From NCBI RefSeq assembly GCF_000317515.1, contig NC_019738.1, forward strand, positions 1,617,623 to 1,681,622: a stretch of DNA of 64,000 nucleotides, written 5' to 3'. Below, piece after piece: positions 28,570 to 61,700 of the stretch; within the stretch, counting starts at the first letter, position 1, and each line of letters begins with the position of its first letter. The notes under the pieces were generated by a model. The model ran no database searches. It saw only the letters and a program-made list of their open reading frames with translations, and was not told where the DNA came from. Position numbers and translations under genes: made by a program. The DNA comes from Allocoleopsis franciscana PCC 7113 (GTDB lineage: Bacteria > Cyanobacteriota > Cyanobacteriia > Cyanobacteriales > Coleofasciculaceae).

Positions 28570-28671
28570 TTGCTTCAGAGCAAACGCTAGCGCACCCAGA
28601 CTTTCACCAGTGCGTTAGCGCTGCGCTATCTAACTAAATACAGCGGATTTCAATTTGATGAGGTACATTTT

Positions 28672-28706
28672 GACCCCCCTAACCCCCCCTTATTAAAGGG
28701 GGAACT
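28672..28706 (+). repeat. Dispersed G/C-run hairpin element, CCCCCCTAACCCCCCCTT-atta-AAGGGGGAACT (copy C)
   Basis: It shares about 30 bp with copies at 56499..56532 and 60456..60489, and with 60564..60597 in inverted orientation. Confidence 0.7.
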
Positions 28707-28842
28707 GTACTTCATTTACCTGAAATCTGCTGTAGATGAACAGTTAGGCGATCGCTTATCATCAAACCAAAAACAGAAGCCATGCCAACATCTCATCATA
28801 ATGGATTAGTCTGCCTACACAGACTCTCCAGCCGAGGTTGTT

Positions 28843-46372: not shown

Positions 46373-48271
46373 ATGTCTTACGCATCTTCTTCCAAAAGCT
46401 TCCCGGACTTCCTCAAAACTTTACCCCATAAGTTGAGTCAGCCAACAGCTATTGCTGTTATCGCTTCTGTCGGTATTCATGCCGCTCTAGGATTCTCTTT
46501 ACCTTACTTTTCAACTTCTTCCCAGGAAAAGCCCAAGCCGATCCGGAATGTCCAACTGCTGGAATTAAAACCAGAAGAATTGAGCCGTGTCCCTCCGTCT
46601 CCTCTACCTTTAGATCCCCTATCACCCTCGCTCAATCAGCAGCTAACGCCGTTGTCACCCTCTGGGTCTTCCACTTTCCCGTCGCTGCCATCCTTCTCTT
46701 CTAACACTCCGTCTCTTGGGGATTTACCCTCATTTGACCCTCTGCCCTCCCTGGGCGGCTCTGGGAACGTTCCGGGGCGAGCCACTAACCTCGGTAAGCT
46801 AGCCCGTAACAGCCCTGTACGGACTCAGATCAAAAGAAACCCAGGAGAGCCTCCCCTGCCATCGGAGGTGTTTAATAGTCAAGGGGGAAAATCTTCTGCC
46901 AATCCTCAGTTTAAGATTGCTACGGGTTCTAAGATAACGAGTAGCCCGAATCTGCGTCCGGATGTGGGTGGCTTGACCAGAGGACTGCTCCCTGCCAATG
47001 ACAATCTGCCCCTATTAGAGAGGTTCAATTCCAACCAAACCTCTCGGTCATTCCCTCCACCGCCTCCAGCCGGAGCGATCGCCGTTAATCCGGGTGTAAC
47101 AGGGACACCGTTTCAAAATCAAGTCGGAGCCACTCCGTCTATGTCAGCTTTTGGCCAAACAACCCAGGCAACTGCTCCGGCTTCAGGTCAGGGAAGTTTG
47201 ACAAGCGAAACAGCGACTAGGAATTTCAACGCTTTCGTCCAACGTCAAGAAGATTGGAAAAAGCGCCATCAAGTGAGTGGCGAACTGCAAGAACTGCCCC
47301 TAACCGTTGGCAAGTATCCCGAAAAAGCTCGTGCTGCCGGAGTAGACCGTGGCAGCCTTCAGGTTAATTGGATGGTCGATAAAAACGGCAACATCATCGC
47401 CGACAGCCTGGAGATCATTGGGAGTTCTGGAGATGGAGTTTTTGACGAGGAAGCGCTCGCCGCCGTTAGAAAGCTTTCCATTCCAGCCACAGGTCAAGAC
47501 AAGGCTTACACGGTTCGGGTTATATTTTATGACGATAGCGCAGTTCCTGGGAGTGTAACAGGTTCACCCAACTCAACGGATGGGAAAAATTCAGCCGATC
47601 GCCAAAACTTACCGCAGCGACTCACCCCAACCGATCGCCAAAACTCACCGCAGCGACTTAGCCCAGCAGAGCAATTAACTCCTCCTGAACAGCGAAACTC
47701 ACCGGAGTGGTCTACCCCCAGTGAGCGAAAAATCCCATCAGTTCGCCCTAATTCTTCAGAACAGCCCAATCCAACGGAAGGGAAAAACCCAACTGAGCAA
47801 CCCAATTCCTCACAACAACCCAACCCAACGGAGGAGAAAAAACCAACACAGCCGTTAACTCCTCCAAAAGGAGAAAACTCAACAGAACGTTCCACTCCAA
47901 CGGAGCAAATTTCTCCTCCCAAACGGGAAAACTCAACAGAACGCTCCACCCCAACGGAGCAAATTTCTCCTCCCAAACGGGAAAACTCAACAGAACGTTC
48001 CACCCCAACGGAGCAAATTTCTCCTCCCAAACGGGAAAACTCAACAGAACGTTCCACCCCAACGGAGCGAATCTCTCCTCCCAAACGGGAAAACTCAACA
48101 GAACGTTCCACCCCAACGGAGCGAATCTCTCCTCCCAAACGGGAAAACTCAACGGAACCGCGCAGCTCATCGGAATCACAAAATTCTGAAAAGCCTCAAA
48201 AATTACCACAACCGCAAAGTTCCGAAAAGCCTCAACGATTGCCGCAACTGCCCAATTCAGTCAAACCTTAA
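46373..48271 (+). CDS. TonB-like energy-transducer protein with an atypical repetitive C-terminal extension
   Basis: 632 aa. It has an N-terminal transmembrane anchor, a Pro/Ser-rich spacer and a TonB_C-like domain (YPEKARAAGVDRGSLQVNWMVDKNGNI...IIGSSGDGVFDEEALAAVRKLSIP). About 250 aa of S/T/P/E-rich sequence follows, including 18-aa tandem repeats. Confidence 0.65.
   Translation: MSYASSSKSFPDFLKTLPHKLSQPTAIAVIASVGIHAALGFSLPYFSTSSQEKPKPIRNVQLLELKPEELSRVPPSPLPLDPLSPSLNQQLTPLSPSGSSTFPSLPSFSSNTPSLGDLPSFDPLPSLGGSGNVPGRATNLGKLARNSPVRTQIKRNPGEPPLPSEVFNSQGGKSSANPQFKIATGSKITSSPNLRPDVGGLTRGLLPANDNLPLLERFNSNQTSRSFPPPPPAGAIAVNPGVTGTPFQNQVGATPSMSAFGQTTQATAPASGQGSLTSETATRNFNAFVQRQEDWKKRHQVSGELQELPLTVGKYPEKARAAGVDRGSLQVNWMVDKNGNIIADSLEIIGSSGDGVFDEEALAAVRKLSIPATGQDKAYTVRVIFYDDSAVPGSVTGSPNSTDGKNSADRQNLPQRLTPTDRQNSPQRLSPAEQLTPPEQRNSPEWSTPSERKIPSVRPNSSEQPNPTEGKNPTEQPNSSQQPNPTEEKKPTQPLTPPKGENSTERSTPTEQISPPKRENSTERSTPTEQISPPKRENSTERSTPTEQISPPKRENSTERSTPTERISPPKRENSTERSTPTERISPPKRENSTEPRSSSESQNSEKPQKLPQPQSSEKPQRLPQLPNSVKP
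47873..48165 (+). repeat. Five near-perfect 54-bp tandem repeats plus a partial sixth, encoding ENSTERSTPTE(Q/R)ISPPKR, inside the TonB-like CDS
   Basis: The repeats were read directly from the sequence. The copies differ only at 1 to 3 positions (caaatt/cgaatc). Confidence 0.9.
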
Positions 48272-56441: not shown

Positions 56442-56498
56442 ATGCTCAGCACTCTTTAGCACTCTTTCTTCTCAGTGTTAATGATGCATCTCCCGAAA

Positions 56499-56532
56499 TC
56501 CCCCCTACCCCCCTTGAAAAAGGGGGGAACTA
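56499..56532 (+). repeat. Dispersed G/C-run hairpin element (copy D), CCCCCCTACCCCCCTT-gaaa-AAGGGGGGAACT
   Basis: See the copy at 28672..28706. Confidence 0.7.
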
Positions 56533-56708
56533 GACCAGATTGGCAGCAGGCGAGTGACTACCTCCCTTAAAGAAGGGGGACATTCTGGGGCAAACGTTTG
56601 AGCGATCGCATTCTCAGATCTCCTTTATGCTTACAGAATGTGCGATTAATAACGGTACCCCCGTAAAAAGCGATCGCCCTAACAGGAAGTACGATTCAAC
56701 AGGGTCTT

Positions 56709-58940: not shown

Positions 58941-59372
58941 AACGGAGATGTTGCACCCTTTTCATGGATGTCATAACCTGCCAAGAACTTTAGTTCTTGG
59001 CTCATATTTCAAGTCTACTAAAGTGGACTGAAAATAGTATACAGTCGTCTTTAGAGACAGCCTCTTATTTTCCTCCGCCTAGAGTGATGAAAGAGCGCTA
59101 CTTAGTGACTAACAGGAATATTTATCCCAAAGACTTGCCGACTCTGCCTCCTGCCCTTTTTTAGTTCGTCGAACTCACGTTATTTTATAGGCTTTAAATA
59201 ACTTAATTACGGGTCGCAAAACGATTTGTTGCTCAACTGTTACAGCGACAGATGGTCAGACAGGTCTAGAAAAAGCCAGAAGTCTTATCCCTGACTTAAT
59301 TGCTGGTTATACTGAAAGGCATGGCGTTCAGTCATCTGGTTTATCGCAGCAATGTAAAGAGAAAGCAACACC

Positions 59373-59810
59373 ATGATGTTGAGTACAGAATATACTGAGA
59401 TTCAAGCTGAAATTGAGTCTGGTTTAAAAGAAATAATGGCTTCGCAGGGTGCGCTCGTTGTGGCACTGGGAAATTGGAAAACTGGGCAGTGCATTTGCCA
59501 CGAAGGTATTGATAGTCCTCTGTTCCCCAATAGCAAAATTAGCATGGCGGTAACAGGCAACGCTAAAGTCATCCAAGCCAAGATGGAGGTTGCCAAGGCG
59601 CTCCAGTTTTCAGATAAAATTGATCAGATATTAATTGCACTCTCATCGCAGTGGCACTTAATGAATATTCTATCGGCAGAAGACTATTTTATTTATTTAG
59701 CTCTAGATCGAAAATTTTCCAACATTGCAGATGGTACGTTAAAAATAATGAAGGTTGACAGGAAACTATCGCCACTACTCAATTCATACTTGCCGCTTCC
59801 TAGTTTTTAG
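59373..59810 (+). CDS. Hypothetical protein (145 aa)
   Basis: It is an ORF with no recognised domain. Confidence 0.3.
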   Translation: MMLSTEYTEIQAEIESGLKEIMASQGALVVALGNWKTGQCICHEGIDSPLFPNSKISMAVTGNAKVIQAKMEVAKALQFSDKIDQILIALSSQWHLMNILSAEDYFIYLALDRKFSNIADGTLKIMKVDRKLSPLLNSYLPLPSF

Positions 59811-59830
59811 ACAATAAGGGAAATCTCTTT

Positions 59831-60374
59831 TCAGCGAGGAATAAAAACCCAGGAGCGATCGCCAGGAGAGTCCTCGAAAATAGCCCCGCGTCGCTTTAAG
59901 TCAAGTTTCATCTCTTCAGTCAGTCCTAAAAATACATATCCATCTCTTAAACTTACCGAGAGTTTGGCTCCAAACTCCACCGGGCTTCCGGCTTTCCCTC
60001 TCACTATTGGACGAATATGCTGTTGACTCAAACTGAGATATAGGGTTTTCTTTGATTTGTTCTACTGTTTCCCGATCGCTTATTCCCAACTTCTCTTTGA
60101 TTATTAATGAACCTAATGCCATCCGAAACGGTAGGGCGGATGCTCCTATATCTTCGGTAAAAGTTTGGGCGTATTCCTCTTCAAACTCATCCCAGGGTAT
60201 TAGATTAGCTATCCTTACCCAACGGTTGTCTTGTGATAACTTTCCCTCAAAGGGTAACTCAAACTTGGACGGTGGCGTGGGAAGTGATTCAACTTTTCGG
60301 TACATTTTCCCTGGTTGAGGTACAAGGGTTTTGCCAGATTTTACCTGATTTCCTTGGACTTGAGCAACTCTCAA
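59831..60374 (-). pseudogene. Remnant of an IS4/IS5-superfamily DDE transposase: N-terminal ~220 codons in two frames, with the C-terminal catalytic half missing
   Basis: The strings LIIKEKLGISDRETVEQIKENP and IRPIVRGKAGSPVEFGAKLSVS are typical N-terminal transposase motifs. The reading frame is broken between the 152-aa and 66-aa ORFs and is truncated at ~59831. Confidence 0.55.
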
Positions 60375-60455
60375 GACCGCTTAACCTATTGATAACTAAG
60401 GGTTTCCGCTTTTCGCAGCAAGCCCTAATTAGTAGTTCGTTGATATCCTCAAATC

Positions 60456-60489
60456 GACCCCCCCTGCCCCCTTTAGTAAGGGGGGAGTT
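60456..60489 (+). repeat. Dispersed G/C-run hairpin element (copy A)
   Basis: The sequence is gaccccccctgccccctttagtaaggggggagtt. Confidence 0.7.
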
Positions 60490-60563
60490 GGAAACAGAAG
60501 CTTTTTCAAGTTTCTTCCCCTTTAATACAATTGTGTTTAAAGCTTGGGGCCTATTCTCTGATT

Positions 60564-60597
60564 GCTCCCCCCTTAACAAGGGGGGTTGGGGGGGGTC
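60564..60597 (-). repeat. Dispersed G/C-run hairpin element (copy B), inverted relative to copy A. Together A and B look like the terminal repeats of a ~140-bp MITE-like unit.
   Basis: The reverse complement of 60564..60597 is gaccccccccaaccccccttgttaaggggggagc, which is about 85% identical to copy A. Confidence 0.65.
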
Positions 60598-60631
60598 TTC
60601 AAGTGTCGCATTCACCCGATCTAGAATGAGT

Positions 60632-61700
60632 TTATTGATCGTGCGATCGCATCAGTTCTCGCCAATCATCAGGATATTCGCTCTTTTCAAAAGCAGCCAG
60701 AGAACGCACAGGTGCTTGATGTTTGCGGCTAAATTCGATTTCTCCCCCTAACTCATTCAACAGTTTTTCTGGACGGATTCCTAAATCTTTATCCTCTGGT
60801 ACAAATAAACGCAGTTGATTCGATAAATCCAGGTACGTTTTGTTATACGGGGTAGCGGTTAGCAAAATACATCGACTTTCATTCAGCGCAATATATTCCT
60901 GAATTGCCCGATAACGCTTACCCTGCCGATTCCGCAAGTTATGACTTTCGTCAATCAATACCACCCGATAACGACGTTCATTCGGTAACTCCGTCTGCAC
61001 CCGACTAATGGAGAGAACTTTTGCCCGGAGTCCATAGCGGTGAACATAGTCCTCCCACATCGTTACTAAGTTTTTAGGGCAAATAATTAGGGTTTATAAG
61101 AAAAAATCTTCTTCTAAAATCTTGGCTAACGTTGTTGCAATTAACGTTTTGCCCAACCCCACCACATCCCCGATTAATACCCCACCTCTACGGTTGACGT
61201 GACGCGCAGCAATTTGAACCGCAGCTTTTTGGAAGTCAAACAACTGATTCTTAACATCGCGAGGAATCTGATATTCAGCTAATCCCGCCCTGGCTTCCTG
61301 GGATAAGTGATAAGCAATTTTCAGATAAATATAGTAAGGCGGAATCAGCTTTTCTCTCGCCCAACTGTTATCGATAATTTCAACCAATTCTTGGGAAATA
61401 TCGATACACCAACGGTCATTCCATCGGTCATCAAACCACTTTTGCAGCTTTTGACAAGCATCATGGTCTAAAACATCAATATTCAATTCCCCTTGATGTT
61501 CTAGCCCAGACAAAGTAAGATTGCTACTTCCCAAAAACCCAATCGTGGGATTAATGATATCACTGCGATGAACTAGGTAAAGTTTGGCATGAAGAGGATG
61601 TCTGAGAAACAGTTTAACAATAACTTTCTGATTTTTTAGCTTAGAACCGCCAACAAAAAAGCGCCCCCCTTGCGGAGAGCGCTTTTTTTAAGCTAAATTC
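60632..61700 (-). pseudogene. Decayed PLD(HKD)-nuclease / SNF2-family helicase gene, truncated at both ends and frameshifted
   Basis: The upstream in-frame extension reads ...HAKLYLVHRSDIINPTIGFLGSSNLT (an HxK(x)4D PLD motif) with no start codon. A stop at 61700 sits directly against the psbA terminator. Walker A is GDVVGLGKT, and the second fragment has DESHNLRN (motif II) and LLTATP (motif III). The frame is broken between 61060 and 61094, and there are no helicase C-terminal motifs. Confidence 0.6.
61650..61692 (-). terminator. psbA intrinsic terminator: a GC-rich hairpin flanked by an A-run and a T-run
   Basis: The sequence aaaaaagcgccccccttgcggagagcgcttttttt lies 20 to 50 bp downstream of the psbA stop. 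Confidence 0.6.

Follow-up and report, generated by a model that had tools for sequence, protein, structure and literature searches.

The stretch of DNA analysed here, called the window throughout, comprises 64,000 nucleotides of Allocoleopsis franciscana PCC 7113 (contig NC_019738.1, positions 1,617,623 to 1,681,622); it has 48% G+C and 47 HIP1 octamers, and its kinase is identical to WP_015181489.1 of this strain. Towards the right-hand end of the window a short two-armed unit (60456–60597) lies between an IS5-family (DUF772) transposase remnant on the left and the remnant of a PLD/SNF2 helicase on the right. This is the setting, between a transposase remnant and a helicase pseudogene, that had been described in an earlier note made from the letters alone, which took the whole unit to be MITE-like (MITE, miniature inverted-repeat transposable element). 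With a confidence that is only a little above even, we read the unit as two inverted copies of a G/C-run hairpin repeat that lie inert in decayed mobile DNA, and the family to which they belong as selfish DNA that is spread in trans.

The left arm (60456–60489) reads GACCCCCCCTGCCCCCTTTAGTAAGGGGGGAGTT and the right arm (60564–60597) reads CTCCCCCCTTAACAAGGGGGGTTGGGGGGGGTC. A repeat search of the window recovered the arms as an inverted pair of 30 nt (60458–60487 and 60565–60594) with 83% complementarity and a gap of 77 nt, or 74 nt with the limits of the earlier note; this agrees with the two inverted, ~85% identical copies 74 bp apart that had been claimed, and in a gapped alignment the two arms are identical at 27 of 36 positions (75%). 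The G/C-run hairpins that had been proposed, one in each arm, were also both recovered, with C5–6/G6 stems: the stem found by the repeat search in the left arm is CTGCCCCCTT/AAGGGGGGAG, and the hairpin of the right arm is CCCCCC-TTAACAA-GGGGGG. The nhmmer scores of the arms (Table 1) were obtained with a profile built from 149 half-elements. Each arm is 75–78% identical to the other copies in the window and 84–89% identical to copies on Planktothrix plasmids. As the arms are no more alike than either is to unrelated copies, their likeness is the family background and not the mark of a recent inverted duplication. In contrast to the canonical doublets described below, there is no complementarity between the two loops, TTTAGTAA and TTAACAA. 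One strand of a 154-nt stretch holding the unit is predicted to fold as a single long hairpin, with an energy of −76.9 kcal/mol as RNA (z = −6.1) and of −35 kcal/mol as DNA (z = −4.2). The outer flanks of the unit, GA...TC, are inverted, as they are across the whole family.

Table 1. Coordinates of the two-armed unit, of the further copies of the repeat and of the neighbouring features, as positions of the window.
Feature	Position	Strand	Description and basis
Left arm of unit	60456..60489	+	Half-element GA-C7-TG-C5-TTT-AGT-AA-G6-AGTT; own hairpin 60464–60487; nhmmer E = 1.8e-7
Spacer of unit	60490..60563		Unique sequence; weak internal hairpin CCCCTTTAA...TTTAAAG..GGGG at about 60517–60549
Right arm of unit	60564..60597	-	Half-element GA-C8-AA-C6-TT-GTT-AA-G6-AG; nhmmer E = 3.3e-8
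Second copy, doublet	56498..56590	+	Intact left half AT-C6-TA-C6-TTGAAAAA-G6, 33-nt spacer, degenerate right half
Third copy, solo half-element	28672..28705	+	GA-C6-TAA-C7-TTATTAAA-G5-AAC
Carrier element	28641..28732		92 nt; 27-nt imperfect terminal inverted repeats CAGCGGATTTCA... / ...TGAAATCTGCTG; TA on both sides
IS5-family remnant, internally deleted	59831..60428	-	Pfam DUF772; plasmid BLAST; alignment with the Oscillatoria nigro-viridis IS
PLD-domain/SNF2 helicase remnant	60647..61642	-	Internal stop, both ends truncated; ends 49 nt to the right of the unit
Strain-specific block	58943..61647		2.7 kb; IS remnants, unit and helicase remnant; BLAST of L138 and L144, gene maps

The arms belong to a large repeat family with the consensus (R)AT-C6-NN(N)-C6-TT-loop-AA-G6. 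The canonical member is a double hairpin of 63–90 nt, (R)AT-C6-TAA-[C6 TT loop AA G6]-spacer-[C5 TT loop AA G5]-ATTTA-G5-AT(Y), in which the outer C and G runs are able to pair and the two halves mirror each other. A pattern scan with one genome per species gave at least 120 stretches, and all of our counts of genome loci rest on the matches listed. Among these, ~40% come from cyanobacteria and the others from Desulfobacterota, Nitrospirota, Beta- and Gammaproteobacteria, Chloroflexota, Planctomycetota, Omnitrophota, the Candidate Phyla Radiation and others; the listed matches amount to hundreds of copies across genomes and viral contigs, and the family is abundant in the viral contigs of IMG/VR, again as judged on the matches listed. 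An (A/G)AT stands directly 5' of the first C run in nearly all of the listed matches and an inverted partner lies nearby in many of them, two features that the pattern did not require. The asymmetric consensus (R)AT-C6-TAA-C6-TT-loop-AA-G6 ... (AAGT)C5-TT-loop-AA-G5-ATTTA/ATTGA-G5-AT(Y) persists when 19 short doublets are aligned that come from eight groups, among them cyanobacteria, Desulfobacterales, Omnitrophota, Schekmanbacteria, Gammaproteobacteria and Isosphaeraceae; this is a third feature that the search did not impose.

The fetched loci and the window together hold 26 inverted pairs, including the pair at 60456–60597. The spacers measure 7–31 nt in 19 of the 26, and longer ones hold tandem repeats or extra partial hairpins. 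The loops are fully complementary between the halves in ten of the 20 same-length pairs (permuted partners: mean of 1.6 and maximum of 6 over 2000 trials), an excess over permutation from which the halves of the canonical doublet can be taken as true mirror copies. At the outer flanks inverted 3-mers match in 18 of the 26 pairs and direct 3-mers in none, the sole 'direct' match being the self-complementary AT. Copies show no bias as to gene orientation or as to convergent, divergent or co-directional spacers. A crude tally of compensatory changes in the stems was left out of account, since shifts of register confounded it. Rfam gave no match in the window, and the element sequences reach only sub-threshold matches to generic hairpins (miRNA precursors); word and topic searches of open-access full text found no paper describing the motif.

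Most copies are intergenic and about a quarter to 30% lie in long open reading frames (ORFs). For ten genes Pfam confirms the genic location, and domains bracket the insert in LeuRS, RecJ (Nitrospirota), RsmE, a histidine kinase, two nonribosomal peptide synthetase adenylation domains, a CbiG-methylase, a radical-SAM protein and a CHAT protein. One frame is open per strand and the encoded loop is PPxPPLxKGG(x)GG; the encoded peptides matched no model in Pfam or NCBIfam. BLAST against plasmids placed the motif inside annotated genes of Planktothrix agardhii plasmids, where the doublets in pglX (L004 1500–1676 and L005 1415–1531) have a spacer of 30-nt in-frame tandem repeats. The number of these repeats differs between the Planktothrix strains NIES-204 and No.365, and they are a possible source of protein-length variation in this BREX methyltransferase defence gene. 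Two Nostoc orthologues of pglX are without the insert. The pglX gene of Nostoc sp. ATCC 53789 (L127, about 245–350) has a doublet of the CCTCTCC type at the same position, with the outer stem and both inner hairpins paired. This is anecdotal evidence for compensatory change, and it indicates that the family extends beyond the C6 pattern that was searched. The lack of orientation or spacer bias, together with the presence of copies in genes, fits selfish insertion filtered by selection and not a terminator or regulatory role.

In the window there are 13 occurrences of CCCCCYT-N5-RAGGGGG, counting overlapping registers and both strands, compared with 0.17 expected from shuffled sequence, and the nhmmer profile finds four strong half-elements and one weak half-element. 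The doublet at 56498–56590 sits between the genes for a Na/Ca exchanger and the kinase, and its right half reads CCTCCC-TTAAAGAA-G5-ACATTCT-G4. At the same site in Microcoleus sp. FACHB-53 the doublet is degenerate and diverges more than the flanking DNA; in Microcoleus sp. FACHB-1 an insertion of 1.3 kb (L138 8647–10001) takes the place of the spacer with the doublet, and one of the two small genes that it carries has a weak match to a PIN domain. The solo half-element at 28672 lies at the centre of the 92-nt carrier, the terminal repeats of which begin CAGCGG and CAGCAG. Split BLAST matches and the junction sequences show that FACHB-53 and a JGI metagenome contig have this site empty, with TA present only once. 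The carrier's terminal repeats were not found a second time in the window or in any of the fetched loci. From its TA flanks and CAG ends the carrier looks like a MITE of the IS630/Tc1 type. At this site it is the carrier that moved and not the hairpin, which is either a passenger or a nested insertion. An extra CTAA is present 5 nt upstream of the carrier in PCC 7113.

Compared with the rest of the family, the pair at 60456–60597 is atypical: its spacer is long and unique, its arms are not twins and it has no target-site duplication. Comparison of its flanks, ...aaatc|GA and TC|ttcaag, shows no direct repeat, no second copy of the 74–81-nt spacer was found in the window, in ~260 fetched loci or in a metagenome collection, and a metagenome scan with the right flank of the unit gave zero matches. 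A Logan k-mer contig of the same strain (L136; 100% identical) spans 60237–61681; it reads through the unit, its only breaks being in the IS remnant and at psbA, which argues against near-identical copies elsewhere in that genome. The long unique spacer, the non-twin arms and the missing duplication thus point to an old, expanded doublet or to two neighbouring solo copies. In its block the unit most probably does nothing for the cell.

For the family as a whole, the most likely route of spread would be a hairpin-directed, duplication-free transposition in the style of REPINs or of IS200/IS605 elements, which we favour because the family is built of doublets, has halves that mirror each other and makes no duplications. 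The repeats would spread as selfish DNA by means of an enzyme supplied in trans. By analogy with REPINs and their REP-associated tyrosine transposases (RAYTs), and with IS200/IS605 elements and their Y1 transposases, this putative enzyme would recognise folded hairpins in single-stranded DNA and insertion would leave no target duplication. REPINs, which are hairpin-forming doublets of repetitive extragenic palindromic sequences (REPs), owe their mobility to RAYT transposases (Bertels and Rainey 2011, PMC3116915). The family resembles them in its palindromes of 20–40 nt, inverted doublets, short spacer, long hairpin, lack of target duplication, many copies and solo halves. The short spacer and co-evolving halves of REPINs are seen in the family, but the unit itself has a spacer of 74–81 nt and loops that are not complementary. 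REPs carry a GTAG or CGTC tag (Di Nocera 2013, PMC3733652), whereas neither tag occurs here, the 5' flank being (A/G)AT in the family and GA in the unit. Furthermore, REPs are typically lineage-specific and extragenic, whereas this family is found in many phyla and in phage contigs and often inside genes, and no cognate RAYT flanked by family hairpins was found among those examined.

Rickettsia palindromic elements insert in frame in unrelated housekeeping genes and add a peptide while the gene is kept (PMC10969869). The family resembles them in its in-frame insertion in unrelated genes, although the unit in the window is non-coding; the Rickettsia elements differ in length (about 100–150 bp), in restriction to Rickettsia, in sequence and in having a curated protein-domain model, and no model of that kind matches here. 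By these analogies the closest functional counterpart of the family appears to be the REPIN and, for copies within genes, the Rickettsia palindromic element. The small dispersed repeats (SDRs) that Elhai and co-workers reported from Nostoc punctiforme are said to be very small hairpin repeats of 21–27 nt, confined to one cyanobacterial subgroup. They are reportedly nested in mini-transposons and found beside heptamer tandem repeats, with a mobilising enzyme that was not known. Nesting in a mini-transposon is likewise seen for the hairpin half in the carrier at 28641–28732, whereas by the SDR description the present family is longer and crosses phyla. Some overlap between the family and these SDRs (Elhai et al. 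2008, Genome Res 18:1484) is possible.

Similar architectures are found in organelles. Allomyces mitochondria contain double-hairpin elements. The GC clusters of yeast mitochondria are G+C-rich hairpins that are intergenic and sometimes lie in coding regions (PMC4478555). The family is likened to both by architecture only, as a G+C-rich hairpin or double hairpin of 30–80 nt that is scattered over the genome; the mitochondrial elements differ in belonging to organelle genomes, and the yeast GC clusters have short flanking repeats.

Several points weigh against the reading of the family as selfish DNA spread in trans and of the unit as two of its copies. The search pattern itself partly imposed the cross-phylum conservation of the G and C runs. 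The evidence that the 142-bp unit is single-copy in the genome is indirect and comes from assembly behaviour, not from a genome scan. The sole clean filled/empty site is that of the TA-flanked carrier MITE, so that the hairpin's own mobility is not demonstrated; a split BLAST among all of the fetched loci gave no further filled/empty pairs. No mobilising enzyme was found, with Y1 (IS200-like) genes in two of the 120 listed loci (jackhmmer), which is about the chance expectation. The RAYT of L026 is flanked by its own, different repeat, and the flanks of homologues of the L096 RAYT on four plasmids have no G/C-run hairpins. An autonomous version was not seen either: halves that are 1–3 kb apart enclose genes which by eye look ordinary, for example for a TrpD-like protein or a permease.

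The L096 locus, from Dulcicalothrix desertica PCC 7102, has a Y1 transposase gene ~240 nt from a doublet. Just downstream of this gene, which encodes a 255-aa RAYT-like protein, there is a perfect GTAG-tagged palindrome, GTAGAGACGTTACATGTAACGTCTCTAC (L096 929–956), which is probably the gene's own REP. An association of the family with RAYTs was rejected, as judged on a few RAYT clades: the L096 case is not general, given the two Y1 loci among 120, the different REP of L026 and the clean flanks of the four plasmid homologues. At L096 two G/C-run doublets also flank a DUF4351 gene, which is the next one after the palindrome; this association was rejected as well, as no other locus has such a gene. 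All-against-all clustering of ORFs gave one sizeable cluster among the genome loci, in 13 of the 120 listed, and clusters among the viral loci that resemble structural genes of related phages (representative sequences only). No recurrent neighbour gene was seen beyond the apparent phage structural genes, the 13-locus genome cluster having been left unexamined.

Among the rival explanations is one in which no transposition takes place, and we consider it unlikely. The motif would arise and be homogenised in place, through replication slippage or template switching at runs of G or C and through gene conversion among the copies, or it would be a site to which a conserved DNA-binding protein of the host binds. 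This would explain why the C run upstream directly repeats the stem's 5' arm, why spacers grow by tandem duplication (the 30-nt repeats in Planktothrix pglX and in L075), why some doublets have 'flipped' loops and why the 56498 copy is intact in PCC 7113 and, in FACHB-53, degenerate and more diverged than its flanks. However, the extended asymmetric consensus is common to distant phyla and phage contigs, which argues for common descent and transfer and not for recurrent origin on the spot, and conserved domains are interrupted at unrelated positions.

Bacterial MITEs are small, code for nothing, have inverted ends and are predicted to fold stably; cyanobacteria are among their hosts, and fusion with ORFs can take place (PMC3184786, PMC10969869). 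The unit is like them in these first respects, for example like Nezha of Anabaena/Nostoc, with which it was compared by description only. If the 142-bp unit were one classical MITE, its 34-nt arms would be the termini on which a DDE transposase encoded elsewhere acts by cut and paste. The arms are indeed inverted and terminal, the unit folds as one long hairpin (z = −6), doublets are the usual form of the family and the carrier at 28641–28732, with its TA flanks and filled/empty polymorphism, is an apparently true example of an IS630/Tc1-type-like MITE with the same hairpin in the same window. Unlike a MITE, however, the unit has ends without a direct repeat, a unique interior and no matching autonomous IS: the adjacent IS5 remnant ends 27 nt away with unrelated terminal repeats, and no transposase was found between distant family halves in ~240 loci. 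The assembly contig crosses the unit yet breaks at true repeats on either side, and the arms are no more alike than random members of the family and have non-complementary loops. We therefore give this explanation little weight. Flanking target duplications, for which the earlier note had suggested looking, were not found at the unit; with this and the unique spacer its whole-unit MITE largely falls, while the part that stands is that the arms are a genuine small, non-coding, dispersed hairpin repeat with the doublet as its standard form.

An action of the hairpins in RNA, for which they would be kept as bidirectional terminators, stabilisers of mRNA 3' ends or small structured RNAs, seems quite improbable. 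The stems are very stable, and many of the non-cyanobacterial copies have AAAT...ATTT(T) around the outer stem, like the A-tract and U-tract of a bidirectional terminator; REP sequences, moreover, stabilise mRNA. However, a consensus terminator scan passes over the unit, neither arm is followed by a T run and the kinase gene and psbA have their real terminators elsewhere; the unit stands between two dead genes. Copies of the family favour neither the 3' ends of genes nor one orientation, about a quarter of them are within coding sequences and nothing reaches the Rfam gathering score. The idea that the element matters as coding sequence, as a mobile peptide module PPxPPLxKGGxGG selected for its contribution to proteins, is very unlikely, since one open frame per strand, the many copies translated within real genes and the in-frame variation of the pglX insert by 30-nt units among Planktothrix strains are set against the intergenic position of most copies, a unit in non-coding junk whose crossing ORFs have no family match, the lack of a Pfam or NCBIfam model for the peptide and inserts that fall in loops and linkers, as expected of insertions that are merely tolerated.

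We thus return to the reading of the arms as inert copies of a selfish hairpin repeat. For this locus it is of little consequence, the unit being a passive relic in strain-specific dead mobile DNA. The family is of more interest, with one asymmetric double-hairpin consensus in cyanobacteria, sulfate reducers, Nitrospirota, Gammaproteobacteria, Planctomycetota and (pro)phage contigs, and with copies inside conserved domains of housekeeping genes that leave the reading frame unbroken. We put forward only tentatively, as the less probable outcome, that this family is undescribed, phylum-crossing and possibly phage-carried, that it would fit neither DDE transposition with duplication nor the REP–RAYT system, and that it routinely enters coding genes in frame and adds a PPxPPLxKGGxGG loop to LeuRS, RecJ, RsmE and other enzymes. 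If it is truly undescribed, it would be to bacteria, over a much broader range of taxa, what the palindromic elements are to Rickettsia. It would also give rise to artefacts of annotation, with PPL..KGG peptides listed as spurious 'hypothetical proteins', and to breaks in assemblies, and it would offer a handle on a new hairpin-recognising mobilisation enzyme.

The surroundings of the unit match their earlier description as a junkyard of mobile DNA: degraded IS and helicase remnants lie in a 2.7-kb block that is missing in two related strains. In FACHB-53 and FACHB-1 the kinase stop is followed by 65 nt and then by the psbA terminator region, and the genes flanking the block have 90–95% identity between PCC 7113 and these strains. 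The absence of the unit from both strains comes with the whole block and is not separable from it. The IS5 remnant is 70–77% identical to IS5 elements of cyanobacterial plasmids (BLAST). An intact IS copy in Oscillatoria nigro-viridis has 19-nt terminal repeats (...CAGCAAGCCCTA), which put the end of the remnant at 60417–60428, so that the unit begins 27 nt outside the IS. The possibility that the unit is part of this IS5 element was accordingly ruled out, as the terminal repeat CAGCAAGCCCTA is also unlike the arms. On the other side, the helicase remnant (61642–60647) corresponds to residues 122–453 of the Leptolyngbya boryana homologue (tblastn), with the rest of the protein unmatched, and is of a kind that is common on cyanobacterial plasmids. 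Insertion of the unit into the helicase gene was ruled out likewise: the homology ends at 60647 and does not resume past the unit or the IS. ORFs that cross the unit have no family match.

The block contains two IS remnants and, at 59373–59810, an ORF of 145 aa with no family match. At 59118–59195 a stretch of ~70 nt has 80–87% identity with sequences of Nostoc and Pseudanabaena plasmids that lie at or next to transposase genes of the IS982 family, and it is probably an IS982 end or a MITE derived from one; assemblies of PCC 7113 break at 59210. Elsewhere in the window, the first 66 nt of the assembly contig L001 match three times at about 47985–48160, in 54-nt steps and with 100%, 98.5% and 95.5% identity. 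This points to a tandem repeat with a 54-nt period, and the assembly breaks there.

Two further observations concern the loci collected for the family. One recurrent group of viral contigs looks Mu-like, to judge solely by a portal-type ORF. In related viral contigs of high G+C content (L175, L177, L178, L184, L189, L194, L195, L218, L222, L235 and L250) a half-element occupies a conserved position; in these eleven loci it is preceded by short tandem repeats (catagt or accaca) and followed by a conserved gene start. Heptanucleotide tandem repeats lie within 40 nt of six of 141 elements (L016, L030, L043, L080, L100 and L123), a weak excess over the chance expectation, roughly estimated at ~3, and tandem repeats of period 7 make up 0.37% of the fetched loci, ~6–20 times as much as those of periods 5, 6, 8 or 9.

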